32,000 nucleotides of DNA from contig CAZHYN010000001.1 in assembly GCA_964536865.1 (NCBI GenBank), positions 180,001 through 212,000 of the forward strand. Direction: 5' to 3'. The translations under genes and the position numbers were made by a program. Shown here one piece after another: positions 25,751 through 32,000 of the stretch. Under the pieces are notes generated by a model that did not search any database, was not told the DNA's origin, and was given only the letters and a program-made list of their open reading frames with translations. This DNA is from an uncultured Planctomycetia bacterium (GTDB taxonomy: Bacteria; Omnitrophota; Gorgyraeia; Duberdicusellales; 4484-171). Each line of letters opens with the position of its first letter. The first letter of the stretch is position 1.

Positions 25751-26701
25751 ATGCAATACTGGGATTTTGAGAAGCCAATAGTGGAGCTGGAGAATAAGAT
25801 AAAGGAGTTAGTAGATTTCTCTACAGCTAAGCAGATAGATTTGTCTTCAGAAATAGAGAGATTAAAGGAAAAATTAAAAAGTTTAAAAAAAAATATCTAT
25901 TCTAACCTCACTCCTTGGCAGAAAGTTCAGATTGCTCGCCATTCTCAGAGACCTACAACTTTAGACTATATAGGGCTTCTGATGGAAGATTTTCTGGAGT
26001 TACATGGAGATAGACTTTATGGAGATGATAAAGCTATCGTCTGTGGTTTAGCTTCCTTAGATAAATTTAGAGTTGTAGTGGTGGGACATCAGAAGGGAAA
26101 GGATACTAAAGAGAACATCGAGAGGAACTTTGGCTGTGCTCACCCTGAGGGGTATCGTAAGGCAATGAGAGTAATGAAGTTAGGAGAGAAGTTTTCTCTT
26201 CCTATAATTTGCTTTATTGATACCCCAGGAGCTTACCCAGGGATAGGAGCTGAAGAACGTGGTCAGGCCCAGGCTATAGCTGAGAATATTCGAGAGATGT
26301 TTACCTTGAATACCCCTATAGTGATAGCAGTAATTGGCGAAGGAGGTAGTGGTGGTGCTTTGGGAATCGGGGTAGGAGATAAGGTATTGATTATGGAATA
26401 TGCTTACTACTCAGTTATTTCTCCTGAAGGATGCGCAGCAATTCTATGGAAAGATTCTAAAAAGGCTCCCCAGGCAGCAGAAACTTTACGACTTACCGCC
26501 CAAGATCTTATAAGGTTTAAAATAGTAGATGAGATTATCCCTGAGCCTGAGGGAGGAGCGCATCGTAATTATCAAGAGGCAGCAGATAACTTGAAGGAAA
26601 CTCTCATAAGAAATCTTGTCTTCCTTACTGAGATGGATCTAGATACCCTTCTAAAAAATAGGTACGATAAATATCGAAGAATAGGAATCTTTAAAGAATG
26701 A
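25751..26701 (+). CDS. accA: acetyl-CoA carboxylase carboxyltransferase subunit alpha
   Basis: 316-aa ORF. YWDFEKPIVELENKI, ARHSQRPTTLDYI, FIDTPGAYPG, and IGEGGSGGALGIGVGD are canonical AccA blocks. Confidence 0.95.
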   Translation: MQYWDFEKPIVELENKIKELVDFSTAKQIDLSSEIERLKEKLKSLKKNIYSNLTPWQKVQIARHSQRPTTLDYIGLLMEDFLELHGDRLYGDDKAIVCGLASLDKFRVVVVGHQKGKDTKENIERNFGCAHPEGYRKAMRVMKLGEKFSLPIICFIDTPGAYPGIGAEERGQAQAIAENIREMFTLNTPIVIAVIGEGGSGGALGIGVGDKVLIMEYAYYSVISPEGCAAILWKDSKKAPQAAETLRLTAQDLIRFKIVDEIIPEPEGGAHRNYQEAADNLKETLIRNLVFLTEMDLDTLLKNRYDKYRRIGIFKE

Positions 26702-27222
26702 TTCAGAAACTTGTTATTTTAGGCCTCCTTAAAAAGAGACCTTCCTCAGGTTACGATATTAAAAAATTTATAGAAAAAGACCTAAAAATATTTACCGATT
26801 TGGACACTCATTCCATCTACTATCCTTTAAAGAAAATGGAAAAAGAGGGATTCATAAAGAAGAAGATGCTAAAAGGAGAAAAACAGCTTAGAAAATATGT
26901 TTACTTTATCACTCCTAAGGGAGAGAAAGAATTTTTAGCTCTCTGTAGAGAAACTTTATTGTCTCAGAAACGCCCCTTTATCGATTTAGATATCTCTCTC
27001 TATTTTCTACCTTTCCTCAGTAAGGAAGAAATTAAACTTCTCCTTCGTGTAAGGTTGAGGTTTTTAGAGAGGGTAAGGAAGTGGCTTATGAAGAAAAAGA
27101 ACGAATTTAAAAAGGCTCCTAAAAATTTACTTCTTCTTATTCAGCATCATTTAAAATTAGCAGGGGCGGAAAAAGAGTTTCTCAAAGATATGATAAGGGC
27201 AATAAAGGAAGGGGAGGTATAG
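26698..27222 (+). CDS. PadR-family transcriptional regulator
   Basis: Its start overlaps the accA stop (ATGA). Winged-helix N-terminus LVILGLLKKRPSSGYDIKKFIE...IYYPLKKMEKEGFI...RKYVYFITPKGEKEF. Confidence 0.85.
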   Translation: MIQKLVILGLLKKRPSSGYDIKKFIEKDLKIFTDLDTHSIYYPLKKMEKEGFIKKKMLKGEKQLRKYVYFITPKGEKEFLALCRETLLSQKRPFIDLDISLYFLPFLSKEEIKLLLRVRLRFLERVRKWLMKKKNEFKKAPKNLLLLIQHHLKLAGAEKEFLKDMIRAIKEGEV

Positions 27223-27228
27223 AGAAGA

Positions 27229-30693: not shown

Positions 30694-30710
30694 GGCCTAA
30701 GAGGTAACTT

Positions 30711-32000
30711 ATGGAGTCTTTAAGAGAAAGAATACTTAAGGATGTTGTAGAAAGAAAAGGGGTAGATAAGAGTATTCTAGATAGGATTAATAAAGAATCA
30801 AAGAATATCTATCAACTGAAAGAGAATCTCATTAAGAATAACATAGTCAGCGAAGAAGAGATTTTACTTATTTTCTCTAAGGAGCTTAAGATTCCCTTTT
30901 TTGATTTGGGGAAATATAAGGTTTCTTCAGAAAATAAGGAGATAATACCCAAAGAGTTAGCCTTTAAATATAAAGTATTTCCCATATCTAAGATAGGAGA
31001 GGTATTAACCTTAGCTACAGCTAATCCTCTAGATGTTGTAGCCATTGATGATATAAAGATGGTTTGCTCCTTAAACAGAGTGGAGCTAGTATTGGCGAAG
31101 GAGGAGGAGATTATAAGATTCCTAGATGAGCTTTATTCTCAAGAAAAGATTTTTCCTCTTTTAGAGGAGGCTCCGCAAGATGCAGAGGTTCAAGAGGTCT
31201 CTTATAAGGGAGAGGAGAGTTTAGAGAAAGTTATTAAGGAAAGTAATCTCCCCCCTATTATAAGAGTGGTGGATTTGATTATCTACGAAGGATTAAAGAG
31301 GAGGGCTTCCGATATCCATATAGAGCCTACAGAAAAAGATTTATCTATAAGGTATAGGATAGATGGAGTTCTTCATCATGGTTTGAGTCTTCCTAAGATT
31401 AATCAAAATGCTATTTTGGCGAGACTGAAGATTATGTCTTCTTTAAATATTACTGAGTTCAGGGTTCCTCAGGATGGAAGATTTAAAATAAAATTTGAAA
31501 ATAGGGAGATAGATTTTAGAGTTTCGTCTCTTCCCACTGATTTTGGAGAGAAGATAGTGTTAAGGGTTTTAGATAAAGAGAGCCTCTCCTTAGGGCTCAA
31601 AAACTTAGGTTTTTCTCCCAGACCTTTAAAGTTATTTGAAGAAGCCTTAAAAGCCCCCTTTGGCATAATTCTTGTTACTGGCCCTACGGGCAGTGGTAAG
31701 TCTACCACCCTTTACTCAGTAATCACCCAACTAAATACTCCGGACAAAAGTATTATCACTATAGAGGATCCTGTAGAGTATCAAATAGAGGGCATTACTC
31801 AAATTCAAGTAAATCCTGAAATCGGCCTTACCTTTGCTTCCTGTTTAAGGAGTGTATTGCGTCAGTCTCCTGATATAATAATGGTAGGAGAAATTCGAGA
31901 CTCAGAAACTGCTGATATTGCTATTAAAGCTTCTCTTACAGGAGAATTAATATTTTCTACCTTGCATACCAATAACTCTGTGGGAGCAATTACTCGGTTA
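30711..32000 (+). CDS. second PilB/GspE-family ATPase with T2SSE_N domain (partial, continues beyond the window)
   Basis: Not in the ORF track because it has no stop in the window. I translated it by hand from the ATG at 30711 (GAGGT 5 nt upstream): 430 codons with no stop. Start MESLRERILKDVV.... Motifs RVPQDGRF, Walker A GPTGSGKSTT, IEDPVEYQ, Walker B SPDIIMVGEIRD. The His box reads LTGELIFSTLHT. Confidence 0.88.
   Translation, partial: MESLRERILKDVVERKGVDKSILDRINKESKNIYQLKENLIKNNIVSEEEILLIFSKELKIPFFDLGKYKVSSENKEIIPKELAFKYKVFPISKIGEVLTLATANPLDVVAIDDIKMVCSLNRVELVLAKEEEIIRFLDELYSQEKIFPLLEEAPQDAEVQEVSYKGEESLEKVIKESNLPPIIRVVDLIIYEGLKRRASDIHIEPTEKDLSIRYRIDGVLHHGLSLPKINQNAILARLKIMSSLNITEFRVPQDGRFKIKFENREIDFRVSSLPTDFGEKIVLRVLDKESLSLGLKNLGFSPRPLKLFEEALKAPFGIILVTGPTGSGKSTTLYSVITQLNTPDKSIITIEDPVEYQIEGITQIQVNPEIGLTFASCLRSVLRQSPDIIMVGEIRDSETADIAIKASLTGELIFSTLHTNNSVGAITRL

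Follow-up and report, generated by a model that had tools for sequence, protein, structure and literature searches.

A free-standing MshEN protein and paired PilB ATPases at the head of a conserved Omnitrophota pilus operon: probable cyclic di-GMP sensing in trans

The last five genes of a 32,000-nucleotide (nt) stretch of contig CAZHYN010000001.1 (GCA_964536865.1; positions 180,001-212,000 of the forward strand), hereafter the window, form the head of a type IVa pilus operon that encodes two PilB-type ATPases, PilB1 and PilB2, together with a separate small protein consisting of an MshEN domain and a membrane-anchored protein with a degenerate GGDEF domain. We propose that cyclic diguanylate (c-di-GMP), a second messenger, is sensed in trans in this system and controls a two-ATPase pilus motor, a reading to which we assign a rough probability of 0.6. 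The observations behind it are the gene content of the operon, its conservation, the retention of the c-di-GMP motif in one MshEN copy and its loss from two others, the folds, and the presence in relatives of c-di-GMP enzymes and a riboswitch within the operon. A preliminary description of the window, made from its letters only, had suggested a second-messenger-gated motor with a trans-acting MshEN adaptor, and this is still the best-supported reading in light of the conserved gene order, the motif kept only in the free copy, and the HD-GYP and riboswitch findings described below. The five genes, in window coordinates, are as follows (aa, amino acids).

26698-27222, plus strand: PadR-family transcription regulator, 174 aa (Pfam PadR, 46.2 bits)
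27229-28554, plus strand: membrane-anchored GAF/dead-GGDEF protein, 441 aa (GGDEF 78.5 bits, GAF 22.6 bits)
28551-28994, plus strand: free MshEN protein, 147 aa (MshEN 72.6 bits, NF053729 64.9 bits)
28984-30693, plus strand: PilB1 (ATPase 1), 569 aa (T2SSE 449.8 bits, MshEN 72.3 bits)
30711-32000, plus strand: PilB2 (ATPase 2), cut by the window end at residue 430 (T2SSE 340 bits, MshEN 68 bits)

Domains were called by a Pfam scan at E <= 0.1 and with NCBIfam, in which NF053729 is a curated model of the MshE-type c-di-GMP-binding motif with a cut-off of 38. These hidden Markov model searches returned PadR, GAF plus GGDEF, a lone MshEN, and MshEN plus T2SSE twice, in agreement with the preliminary domain calls, and the five same-strand open reading frames (ORFs) and all their junctions, as read from the sequence, match the first description exactly. 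The stop codon of the upstream accA gene overlaps the padR start (ATGA), 6 nt separate padR from the gene for the 441-aa protein, the latter overlaps the 147-aa gene by 4 nt, the 147-aa gene overlaps that of ATPase 1 by 11 nt, and 17 nt lie between the two ATPase genes. Tight same-strand packing by itself is ordinary in bacteria; the arrangement is considered to be beyond chance because it is conserved in about 100 independent loci.

Three contigs extend the locus past the window end, namely two Logan contigs (L001 and L002) that encode the window's proteins without any difference, and a conspecific contig from JGI (L083; PilC 99 % identical) that supplies 10 kb of further sequence. On L001 and L002, PilB2 is followed by a 401-aa platform protein of the T2SSF/PilC type and then by a 146-aa pilin with a class III signal (MKDN-FTLVEVMIVVGIL); PilB2 itself is 562 aa at full length (L001 6087-7775), and its T2SSE score rises from 340 bits for the part within the window to 440 bits for the whole. 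L083 continues with a second pilin (N_methyl), further minor pilins and a protein matching PilX_N, then with PilM, PilN and PilO, and lastly with a small protein where PilP would be expected and a secretin of 448 aa. L001 and L083 together thus carry the type IVa component set of T2SSF, N_methyl pilins, PilX_N, PilM_2, PilN, PilO and Secretin, and with the gene set from pilin to secretin on L083 the five window genes are seen to open a complete type IVa pilus operon of the order padR, GGDEF-like gene, free MshEN, pilB1, pilB2, pilC, pilin 1, a class I c-di-GMP (c-di-GMP-I) riboswitch (on L083), pilin 2, minor pilins, PilX-like, pilM, pilN, pilO, pilP-like and pilQ. The preliminary remark that no pilin, platform or secretin gene is visible is true of the window and a mere effect of where the window ends; the case it named as refuting, downstream genes unrelated to pilus or secretion machinery, does not apply, since PilC, pilins, PilMNO and a secretin were found there. 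The first pilin gene differs between contigs, encoding 146 aa in L001 (8998-9438) and an 82-aa ORF in L083 (4283-4531), where an internal deletion of ~178 nt lies in flanking DNA nearly identical to that of L001, a difference that represents strain-level variation or decay of the gene.

For a view of gene order beyond this species, a family alignment of 45 full-length homologs of the 441-aa protein (A1) was used for locus retrieval and yielded 80 loci from 80 species-level reference genomes (GTDB), with labels that are almost all Omnitrophota; ORFs were called in each locus and then searched with the window proteins. An independent control set of 80 metagenome loci was fetched through PilC, not through the GGDEF-like gene, and analysed in the same way. 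In essentially every sufficiently long locus of the species genomes, the GGDEF-like gene is followed by the free MshEN (145-180 aa), PilB1 (~570 aa), PilB2 (~560-575 aa) and PilC, and then by 1-3 pilins; the GGDEF-like gene is the first gene of the conserved core in every case, and PilB1 and PilB2 are consistently separable across loci as orthologous paralogs. The stop-to-stop distance from the GGDEF-like gene to the free MshEN gene has a median of 454 nt for a gene of ~444 nt, and does not exceed 520 nt in 63 of the 77 loci, in which the two genes are thus packed stop-to-start. Among the PilC-anchored metagenome loci with enough upstream sequence, the GGDEF-like gene was found in 20 of 21 and the free MshEN in 21 of 21. 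Where PilC identity is at least 51 %, the same five-gene core recurs wherever upstream sequence is available, with the exception of one metagenome locus (L116) in which the GGDEF-like gene was not detectable. PilC relatives at 39-46 % identity belong instead to a canonical single pilB-pilT-pilC arrangement, with neither a GGDEF-like nor a free MshEN gene. The order is thus conserved across Omnitrophota, and the refuting case named in the preliminary description, an order that does not hold in relatives, does not apply.

A typical Omnitrophota pilus module is also found in a record labelled 'Methanosarcinales archaeon' (L028, JAIWAR010000006.1) and in several TPA records labelled 'uncultured Planctomycetia' (e.g. 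L011, L012, L016). Records that carry this module under either label are probably mis-binned or mis-classified.

The preliminary claim of an MshEN-like domain encoded as a separate polypeptide between the putative receptor and the ATPases is confirmed by both Pfam and NF053729, on which the 147-aa protein scores 64.9 bits against the cut-off of 38. The best 120 of its 224 homologs are stand-alone proteins of 135-204 aa (nearly all 145-152) with 54-76 % identity, and they appear in databases as 'hypothetical protein' or under the automatic label 'PilB' (JGI pipelines). In a phmmer search of the PDB, PilF was the best match (6.3e-39), and the c-di-GMP-bound N-terminal domain of Vibrio cholerae MshE (VcMshEN, 5HTL) was matched at 2.1e-14. 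The AlphaFold2 (AF2) model of the free protein has a predicted local distance difference test score (pLDDT) of 92, and its best fold match is 5HTL, with a TM-score of 0.82-0.86 and a root-mean-square deviation of 2.1 Å, the fold being that of MshEN with an N-terminal four-helix bundle and a C-terminal alpha/beta subdomain; next in fold come the GSPII domains of PilF and PilB-N of the PilB-PilZ complex (7lkm, 7lko). The region of the candidate ligand site is the following.

28578-28736, plus strand: 53-residue tandem c-di-GMP motif of the free MshEN protein, aa 10-62, LLGEILVEKRIITKEQLNEALKVQ-AQDGG-LIGEIIVKLGFASEEEIAQCLSYQ (alignment of 77 orthologs)

The consensus of the motif, RLGxx(L/V/I)(L/V/I)xxG(L/V/I)(L/V/I)xxxxLxxxLxxQ, occurs twice at 24 residues each with a 5-residue spacer; polar ligand contacts are made by the backbone amides of G11 and G40 and by Q32 and Q61, with leucines serving as hydrophobic clamps (PMC5013675). 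Residues were compared in VcMshE numbering across 77 free MshEN proteins, 63 PilB1 N-domains and 58 PilB2 N-domains, G11, G40, Q32 and Q61 of VcMshE corresponding to G12, G41, Q33 and Q62 of the window's 147-aa protein. The window protein has the 5-residue spacer and keeps G11, G40, Q32, Q61, L10, L25, L29 and L58. Across its orthologs, G11, Q32 and Q61 are found in 77 of 77 sequences and G40 in 76 of 77, L10, L25, L29 and L58 are nearly invariant, and the position of R38 is occupied by leucine in 77 of 77.

The same positions have changed freely in the N1 domains of the two ATPases, and PilB1 has a degenerate remnant of the motif.

29008-29166, plus strand: degenerate c-di-GMP motif remnant in PilB1, aa 9-61, SFP... 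and SLN...Y (ortholog alignment)

Glycine at position 11 is absent from all 63 PilB1 sequences (T/I/S/K/V/P) and all 58 PilB2 sequences (I/L), and position 40 is S/V/K/A with no glycine in PilB1 and R/K with 7 glycines in PilB2. Q32 is kept in 46 of 63 PilB1 proteins (histidine in 14) and in 25 of 58 PilB2 proteins, followed there by A/S/T, and Q61 is replaced by Y/G/S in PilB1 and by glutamate in PilB2, with 10 glutamines remaining. The leucine positions 10, 25, 29 and 58 are mostly hydrophobic in PilB1, those at 29 and 58 are variable in PilB2, and the position of R38 is mostly serine in PilB1 and a gap or proline in PilB2. On NF053729, PilB1 scores 35.5 bits, below the cut-off, and PilB2 gives no match. 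Changes of this kind have consequences in known proteins, with VcMshEN G11L showing no detectable binding (PMC5013675 supplement) and the non-binder XpsE carrying changes that include G11V, G40L and Q61V (PMC5013675). To judge from these residues, both PilB N1 domains have lost the c-di-GMP motif, and the free MshEN is the only copy that keeps it. The preliminary characterization of the ATPases as full-length and N-domain-bearing thus stands insofar as both carry an MshEN N-domain, and is to be amended in that neither of these domains retains the motif. Median identity to the window ortholog is 57.8 % for the free MshEN, 45.8 % for PilB1 N1 and 38.9 % for PilB2 N1, and the free protein is nearer to the canonical Geobacter PilB N1 domain than is either fused copy. 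From motif and fold, binding of c-di-GMP by the free MshEN is likely.

PilB1 and PilB2 are 40.6 % identical. Their orthologs, 63 for PilB1 and 58 for PilB2, conserve Walker A and Walker B, the Asp box, the zinc-binding Cys4 and the RxPQDGRF Arg-finger region. The His box is the canonical TGHLV in PilB1 and TG[E/x]L in PilB2, where the first histidine is replaced, by glutamate in about half of the proteins (window about 31940-31990, ...SLTGELIFSTLHTNNS...). Both paralogs are apparently catalytically competent, as far as motif conservation can tell. Both stay below the cut-offs of the NCBIfam equivalogs PilB and GspE, PilB1 scoring 584.5 against a cut-off of 675.65 for TIGR02538 (PilB) and 590.9 against 630.25 for TIGR02533 (GspE), and PilB1 is accordingly described here as a member of the T2SSE superfamily that is unassignable to the PilB or GspE equivalog.

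The 441-aa protein that precedes the free MshEN belongs to a family of about 67 full-length homologs at 30-47 % identity, below which the score drops from 178 to 96 bits; all of the named homologs are from Omnitrophota, and the family is Omnitrophota-specific. Its AF2 model (pLDDT 79.8) comprises two transmembrane (TM) helices, a long helix, a GAF and a GGDEF domain, laid out as follows.

27262-27465, plus strand: two predicted TM helices, aa 12-35 and 42-79, with a 6-residue loop (AF2; hydrophobic RIAIAVILITVIPSLVFVCYIY ... AVLLILGLIVFLGWMIALEVLFSIL)
27508-27672, plus strand: long single helix, aa 94-148, coiled-coil or signalling-helix-like (AF2)
27682-28107, plus strand: GAF domain, aa ~152-293 including a C-terminal linker helix (Pfam; AF2 alpha/beta fold)
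28111-28530, plus strand: catalytically degenerate GGDEF domain, aa 295-434 (aligned with 6d9m, an active cyclase)
28318-28329, plus strand: I-site RxxD, R364-P-I-D367, candidate c-di-GMP site, five residues before the degenerate signature
28345-28359, plus strand: GGDEF signature position, here EEDTL (6d9m alignment)

As modelled, the TM pair is a hairpin membrane anchor without a periplasmic sensor domain. A HAMP model (PF00672) matches the helix region in distant family members (P0065-P0068), and the GAF call, which in the window protein lies just at the cut-off (22.6 versus 22.4 bits in Pfam, aa 155-275), is accompanied by matches to GAF, GAF_2 and GAF_3 in many orthologs. Best fold matches are cyclases with a sensor, coiled-coil and GGDEF architecture (phytochrome-DGC 5llx, Dcsbis 4zmu, PleD), and the protein is a dead-cyclase descendant. 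In the alignment to 6d9m, the metal-binding D.D positions are K.T in the window protein, and GG[DE]EF is found in 0 of 77 orthologs; the signature is hypervariable in the window's clade and mostly 'GDDEF' in the deep clade, where DxD is kept (27 loci).

The I-site spacing equals that of R-E-V-D in 6d9m, and a c-di-GMP receptor role for the 441-aa protein is plausible in the window's clade. The preliminary description had called the protein a c-di-GMP receptor, a claim that finds a basis in the RPID of the window protein and does not extend to the family, since RxxD is kept in 34 of 77 orthologs, all in the window's clade, and reads [ST]E[IV]D in the deep clade. What all members of the family share is a membrane anchor, a GAF and a dead GGDEF domain, and the adjoining free-MshEN gene. 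The most conserved peptide of the family, IL[IP]E[RKS]N[KR]RQ, which differs from the usual cyclase 'LLPET', comes directly after the dead GGDEF strand (window 28375-28392, aa 383-388); its E383 is invariant and N385, R387 and Q388 are conserved to at least 90 %, in both clades, and it may serve as an interaction or ligand patch.

The protein had also been called PelD-like. PelD has four N-terminal transmembrane helices and is encoded in a pelABCDEFG polysaccharide operon. The Pfam PelD model gave no match to the 441-aa protein at E <= 0.1, only GGDEF and GAF being returned, and no PelD chain was among its 31 PDB sequence matches or its top 50 Foldseek matches. Membership of the PelD family was rejected on the results of the Pfam, PDB sequence and fold searches, on a count of two rather than four TM helices, and on a pil rather than pel context (pilB, pilC, pilins and pilMNOQ as neighbours), and what survives of the likeness is a loose architectural analogy.

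Links to c-di-GMP are also found among genes that have been inserted into the operon in particular clades. In 13 reference genomes (L037, L038, L043, L046, L051, L052, L055, L057, L059, L063, L078, L079, L080), as well as in the metagenome locus L114, pilB2 and pilC are separated by a gene with REC and HD_5 domains, which in many cases runs into the start of pilC; its product, of ~356 aa with intact HD and HHExxDGxGYP motifs (e.g. L037 15628-16698), is a probable c-di-GMP phosphodiesterase of the REC-HD-GYP type. The clade with this gene is the one whose GGDEF-like protein is without the RxxD I-site. Within the pilus cluster of L067 (12527-16552) is a gene for a 1341-aa protein that begins with a near-canonical GGDEF domain (150 bits; DVDKF..., an RDSD I-site and RYAGDEF) and continues with an AAA_16 (STAND-like) ATPase region. 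In 10 genomes of another clade, a PilT-type ATPase (~355 aa, T2SSE without an N-domain; L071 11431-12498) is encoded between the GGDEF-like and free MshEN genes (L071, L048, L049, L067, L069, L072-L074 and L076, and L075, where it is split into two ORFs).

In the species of the window, a c-di-GMP-I riboswitch (RF01051) was detected outside the window between pilin 1 and pilin 2, at L083 4607-4725, with 37.7 bits against a gathering score of 35 and a fold z-score of -5.95. With its flanking signals the element occupies L083 4560-4812. A promoter-like site lies 20 nt ahead of the riboswitch, an intrinsic terminator (ACCCAGG...CCTGGG followed by 7 T) comes 12 nt after it, and another promoter-like site precedes pilin 2; the aptamer has two extra hairpins relative to the Rfam consensus. 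Partial copies are present in L001 (9460-9600) and L002 (6020-6165), which share the promoter and the first ~95 nt and then diverge, both contigs ending at the same base inside the riboswitch-like element. At the gathering score, Rfam gave no match on the window, L001 or L002; a permissive scan of L001 gave only a sub-threshold 26.4 bits to the variant RF03167, and an exact 37-mer search of the metagenome collection for the element returned no match. Control of a type IV pilin gene by a c-di-GMP riboswitch has a precedent in Clostridioides difficile (PMC6200980, PMC6366702).

A scheme that would account for these observations is that an ancestral single PilB with a c-di-GMP-binding N-domain was replaced by three parts. 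The first would be the two paralogous PilB ATPases, whose own N1 domains are motif-less; the second, the separate 147-aa MshEN protein, whose motif would be under strict selection; and the third, the membrane-anchored protein with two TM helices, coiled-coil, GAF and dead GGDEF, whose gene is packed stop-to-start with that of the free MshEN. In this scheme c-di-GMP would bind the four-helix N-subdomain of the free MshEN and, in the window's clade, would also bind the RxxD I-site of the GGDEF-like protein. Because their genes are translationally coupled, the GGDEF-like protein and the free MshEN may form a membrane-tethered sensor at the pilus base, and this sensor would act through the MshEN C-subdomain on the recruitment or activity of PilB1 and PilB2 at PilC/PilM, PilC being the single platform. 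The N1 domains of PilB and GspE use the C-subdomain surface for contacts with GspL/PilM and PilZ (review PMC11656802).

Several points weigh against this reading. Ligand binding and the protein contacts are deduced, the mechanism being drawn from synteny, sequence and fold. In motif I of the free MshEN the consensus arginine is replaced by Q/P/L/H/K across the family, and in the window protein both motif-start positions are leucine and G18 is arginine; c-di-GMP affinity could therefore be weak. RxxD is missing from 43 of the 77 GGDEF-like proteins, and c-di-GMP sensing can therefore not be a universal function of that protein. Neither the prepilin peptidase PilD nor PilT was seen in the ~17 kb available for this species (window plus L083). 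Promoter and terminator scans of the window gave counts no higher than in shuffles, and transcription-unit boundaries are therefore not claimed. The 3' half of the riboswitch was not recovered in the contigs that are protein-identical to the window, where the assemblies break, and no riboswitch reached the gathering score in 16 related loci; it is therefore treated as lineage-specific and not claimed for the conserved system. On the matter of the arginines, PilF's GSPII-B domain, which has lysine and leucine (native L196) at the motif starts, binds c-di-GMP with a dissociation constant (Kd) of 6 nM, 'not relying on arginine residues' (PMC11731258), and a PilF K167L mutant crystallised with c-di-GMP (8pe0) is among the fold matches of the free MshEN. 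To go by GSPII-B and 8pe0, a leucine that opens the motif does not preclude nanomolar binding.

The proposal of sensing in trans can be carried further, tentatively, to a motor in which the detached, membrane-tethered sensor picks which PilB engages the single PilC, or in which the two PilBs hetero-hexamerise, so that the pilus is switched between modes; these might, for example, be different pilins, different extension speeds, or PilT-independent retraction by PilB2 with its odd His box. We regard this extension as unlikely as matters stand. If true, the motor would be controlled in a way that has no description in any type IV filament system, and such switching could be what host attachment relies on in these ultra-small bacteria, which are probably predators or parasites.

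Among the alternatives to sensing in trans, the one that fares best holds that the GGDEF-like protein and the free MshEN are nucleotide-independent structural or assembly factors, e.g. a membrane tether, or a chaperone, for the docking or ordering of PilB1 and PilB2, and that the residues of the 'c-di-GMP motif' are kept for folding of the four-helix bundle. The leucine cluster of the motif and the turn glycines G18 and G47 do also build the bundle core (PMC5013675), the consensus arginines are absent from the free MshEN, and more than half of the GGDEF-like proteins have lost the I-site without any break-up of the gene pair. Against this, the fused N1 domains keep the fold, as judged by Pfam MshEN, yet freely replace G11, G40, Q32 and Q61, so that folding does not depend on these residues; that only the free copy keeps them nearly invariant speaks for ligand contact. 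The in-operon HD-GYP protein, cyclase and riboswitch are likewise hard to account for without c-di-GMP. A purely structural role for the pair is thus considered doubtful.

A different role for the 441-aa protein would be that of a working or GTP-binding diguanylate cyclase that supplies c-di-GMP locally to the adjacent MshEN. Cyclases paired locally with an effector are well established (PMC10211494), active sensor-GGDEF cyclases are what the protein matches best in both fold and sequence, and the deep clade keeps DxD (27 loci) together with a 'GDDEF' that is one residue from GGDEF. The absence of GG[DE]EF from all 77 orthologs, the lysine and threonine at the metal Asp positions and the EEDTL signature of the window protein speak against catalysis, as does the hypervariable signature in the window's clade, which is the pattern of a relaxed, non-catalytic site. 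Active cyclase function was rejected for the window protein from these active-site residues, and the reading of a local cyclase-effector pair is very unlikely.

The whole cluster might alternatively encode a type II secretion system (T2SS) or competence pseudopilus, with the sensor gating protein secretion or DNA uptake. The GspE model gives PilB1 a slightly better score than the PilB model does, with both scores below cut-off, the pilins weakly match T2SSG, ComP_DUS and ComGF, the protein in the PilP position matches T2SSB, and the secretin, of only 448 aa, has an N0 domain like that of GspD. The cluster nevertheless matches PilM_2, PilN, PilO and PilX_N and lacks GspC, GspL and GspM, PilT-type ATPases lie inside it in 10 genomes, and TXSScan surveys class Omnitrophota clusters as type IVa pili (PMC10066038), leaving this alternative with slim odds. 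Finally, that the free MshEN is an artefact, i.e. the split or frameshifted N-terminus of an ATPase or a mis-called ORF, might be suspected from its 11-nt overlap with ATPase 1 and its JGI label 'PilB', and is refuted by the complete N1 domain of PilB1 itself (MshEN aa 65-147), by the presence in 77 of 80 genomes of an ORF of 145-150 aa that ends in a stop codon of its own, by the stand-alone nature and similar length of the best 120 of 224 matches, and by an identity to the PilB1 N-domain of only 32 %.

Two genes at the upstream border of the core are not part of it. The first is a housekeeping neighbour that serves here only as context.

25751-26701, plus strand: accA, acetyl-CoA carboxylase carboxyltransferase alpha (Pfam ACCA/Carboxyl_trans on the identical L001 gene)

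The second is padR, whose occurrence upstream of the GGDEF-like gene, within ~3.5 kb, is confined to the window's clade, no deep-clade locus having it there; a ykuD-accA-padR run is likewise linked only in the nearer clade. PadR was for this reason rejected as a core component and is probably a clade-level accessory that acts as a local operon regulator. Among the scanned ORFs in the remainder of the window are housekeeping genes and zero pilus genes. Two pairs of tandem paralogs were seen there, two Na+/H+ exchanger genes at window 587-2997 (397 and 405 aa) and two of the CNNM/CorC type at window 3429-5590 (405 and 315 aa), the second of the latter without a CorC_HlyC domain.

The biological setting gives these findings a wider interest. 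The host-dependent way of life of Omnitrophota is believed to centre on type IV pili (PMC10066038), and their regulation bears on how these nanobacteria find and attach to hosts. A likely function can now be suggested for two protein families that are abundant in Omnitrophota and carry the annotation 'hypothetical protein' or 'diguanylate cyclase'. The locus also offers a testable model for signal transmission by the poorly understood PilB-type N1 domain, an open question according to PMC11656802, and presents the field with what may be called a natural 'domain-swap experiment'.

Control of pili by c-di-GMP through MshEN domains, and through degenerate GGDEF-containing partners, is already known. 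Neither a detached MshEN sensor nor its companions here, a motif-less PilB pair and a membrane-bound dead-GGDEF protein fixed across a phylum, had a prior description in the literature searched, in which subscription journals are thinly covered. The second half of Supplementary Table 4 of PMC5013675, a table of MshEN architectures, contains fusions and not this arrangement, and surveys of Omnitrophota treat type IVa pili as presence or absence, with nothing on c-di-GMP, GGDEF, MshEN or paired PilBs.

Individual elements of the locus have counterparts elsewhere. PelD resembles the 441-aa protein of the window in general design, that of a membrane anchor, a GAF domain and a degenerate GGDEF domain with an RxxD I-site, whereas the Omnitrophota protein has two TM helices, a long coiled-coil helix, a pil context and an I-site that is not family-wide. 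The pilA1 gene of C. difficile likewise combines a c-di-GMP riboswitch and terminator at a pilin gene within a type IV pilus locus (PMC6200980, PMC6366702); the riboswitch described here is of class I (GEMM-I) with two extra hairpins rather than of class II, and lies mid-operon between two pilin genes in this species-level lineage only.

Closer relationships are apparent with motors that carry MshEN domains of their own. With MshE of V. cholerae (5HTL) the free MshEN shares the fold, the 53-residue tandem motif, the Gly, Gln and Leu contacts and an association with a pilus or T2SS-type motor (PMC5013675). In MshE, however, the sensor is fused in cis and the first motif residues are Arg, whereas here the sensor is a separate polypeptide alongside two motif-less N1 domains, and the first motif residues are Leu, Gln or Pro. 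PilF of Thermus thermophilus provides a precedent for divided labour among three MshEN-type (GSPII) domains per pilus motor, one copy being non-binding and one binding with high affinity with Lys and Leu in place of Arg (PMC11731258). The three PilF domains lie on one chain with one ATPase, whereas those of Omnitrophota are distributed over the free MshEN, PilB1 and PilB2, with only the free copy keeping the motif and a GGDEF-like membrane partner added.

The preliminary description had further stated that PelD-type proteins are not known as partners of secretion or pilus ATPases; the pairing of a degenerate-GGDEF receptor with such an ATPase is not unprecedented, FimX already being a known partner of PilB (PMC11656802, PMC8389850). 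In the PilB-PilZ-FimX systems of Xanthomonas and Pseudomonas, as proposed for Omnitrophota, an N1 domain that does not read c-di-GMP is combined with a small adaptor and a degenerate-GGDEF receptor (PMC8389850, PMC11656802). The components differ, in that the adaptor is PilZ there and MshEN here, and FimX is a soluble REC-PAS-GGDEF-EAL protein, whereas its counterpart here is membrane-bound with two TM helices, a coiled-coil, GAF and GGDEF; Pfam and NCBIfam found no EAL, REC, PAS or PilZ domain in the five window proteins. FimX takes up its ligand through EAL, in place of which the Omnitrophota system would likely use the MshEN motif and, in one clade, the I-site, and the latter system also differs in having two PilB paralogs and regulator genes within the pil operon. 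The resemblance to FimX-PilZ-PilB, drawn by comparison of parts, is one of functional analogy only. PilB-PilZ-FimX is thus the closest functional analogue of the Omnitrophota system, and MshE and PilF are the closest by family. If c-di-GMP control of pili has so far been known as an MshEN domain within the ATPase or as FimX plus PilZ in gamma-proteobacteria, this locus would represent a third solution fixed across a candidate phylum, in which the sensor has been detached and both ATPases have been left motif-less.

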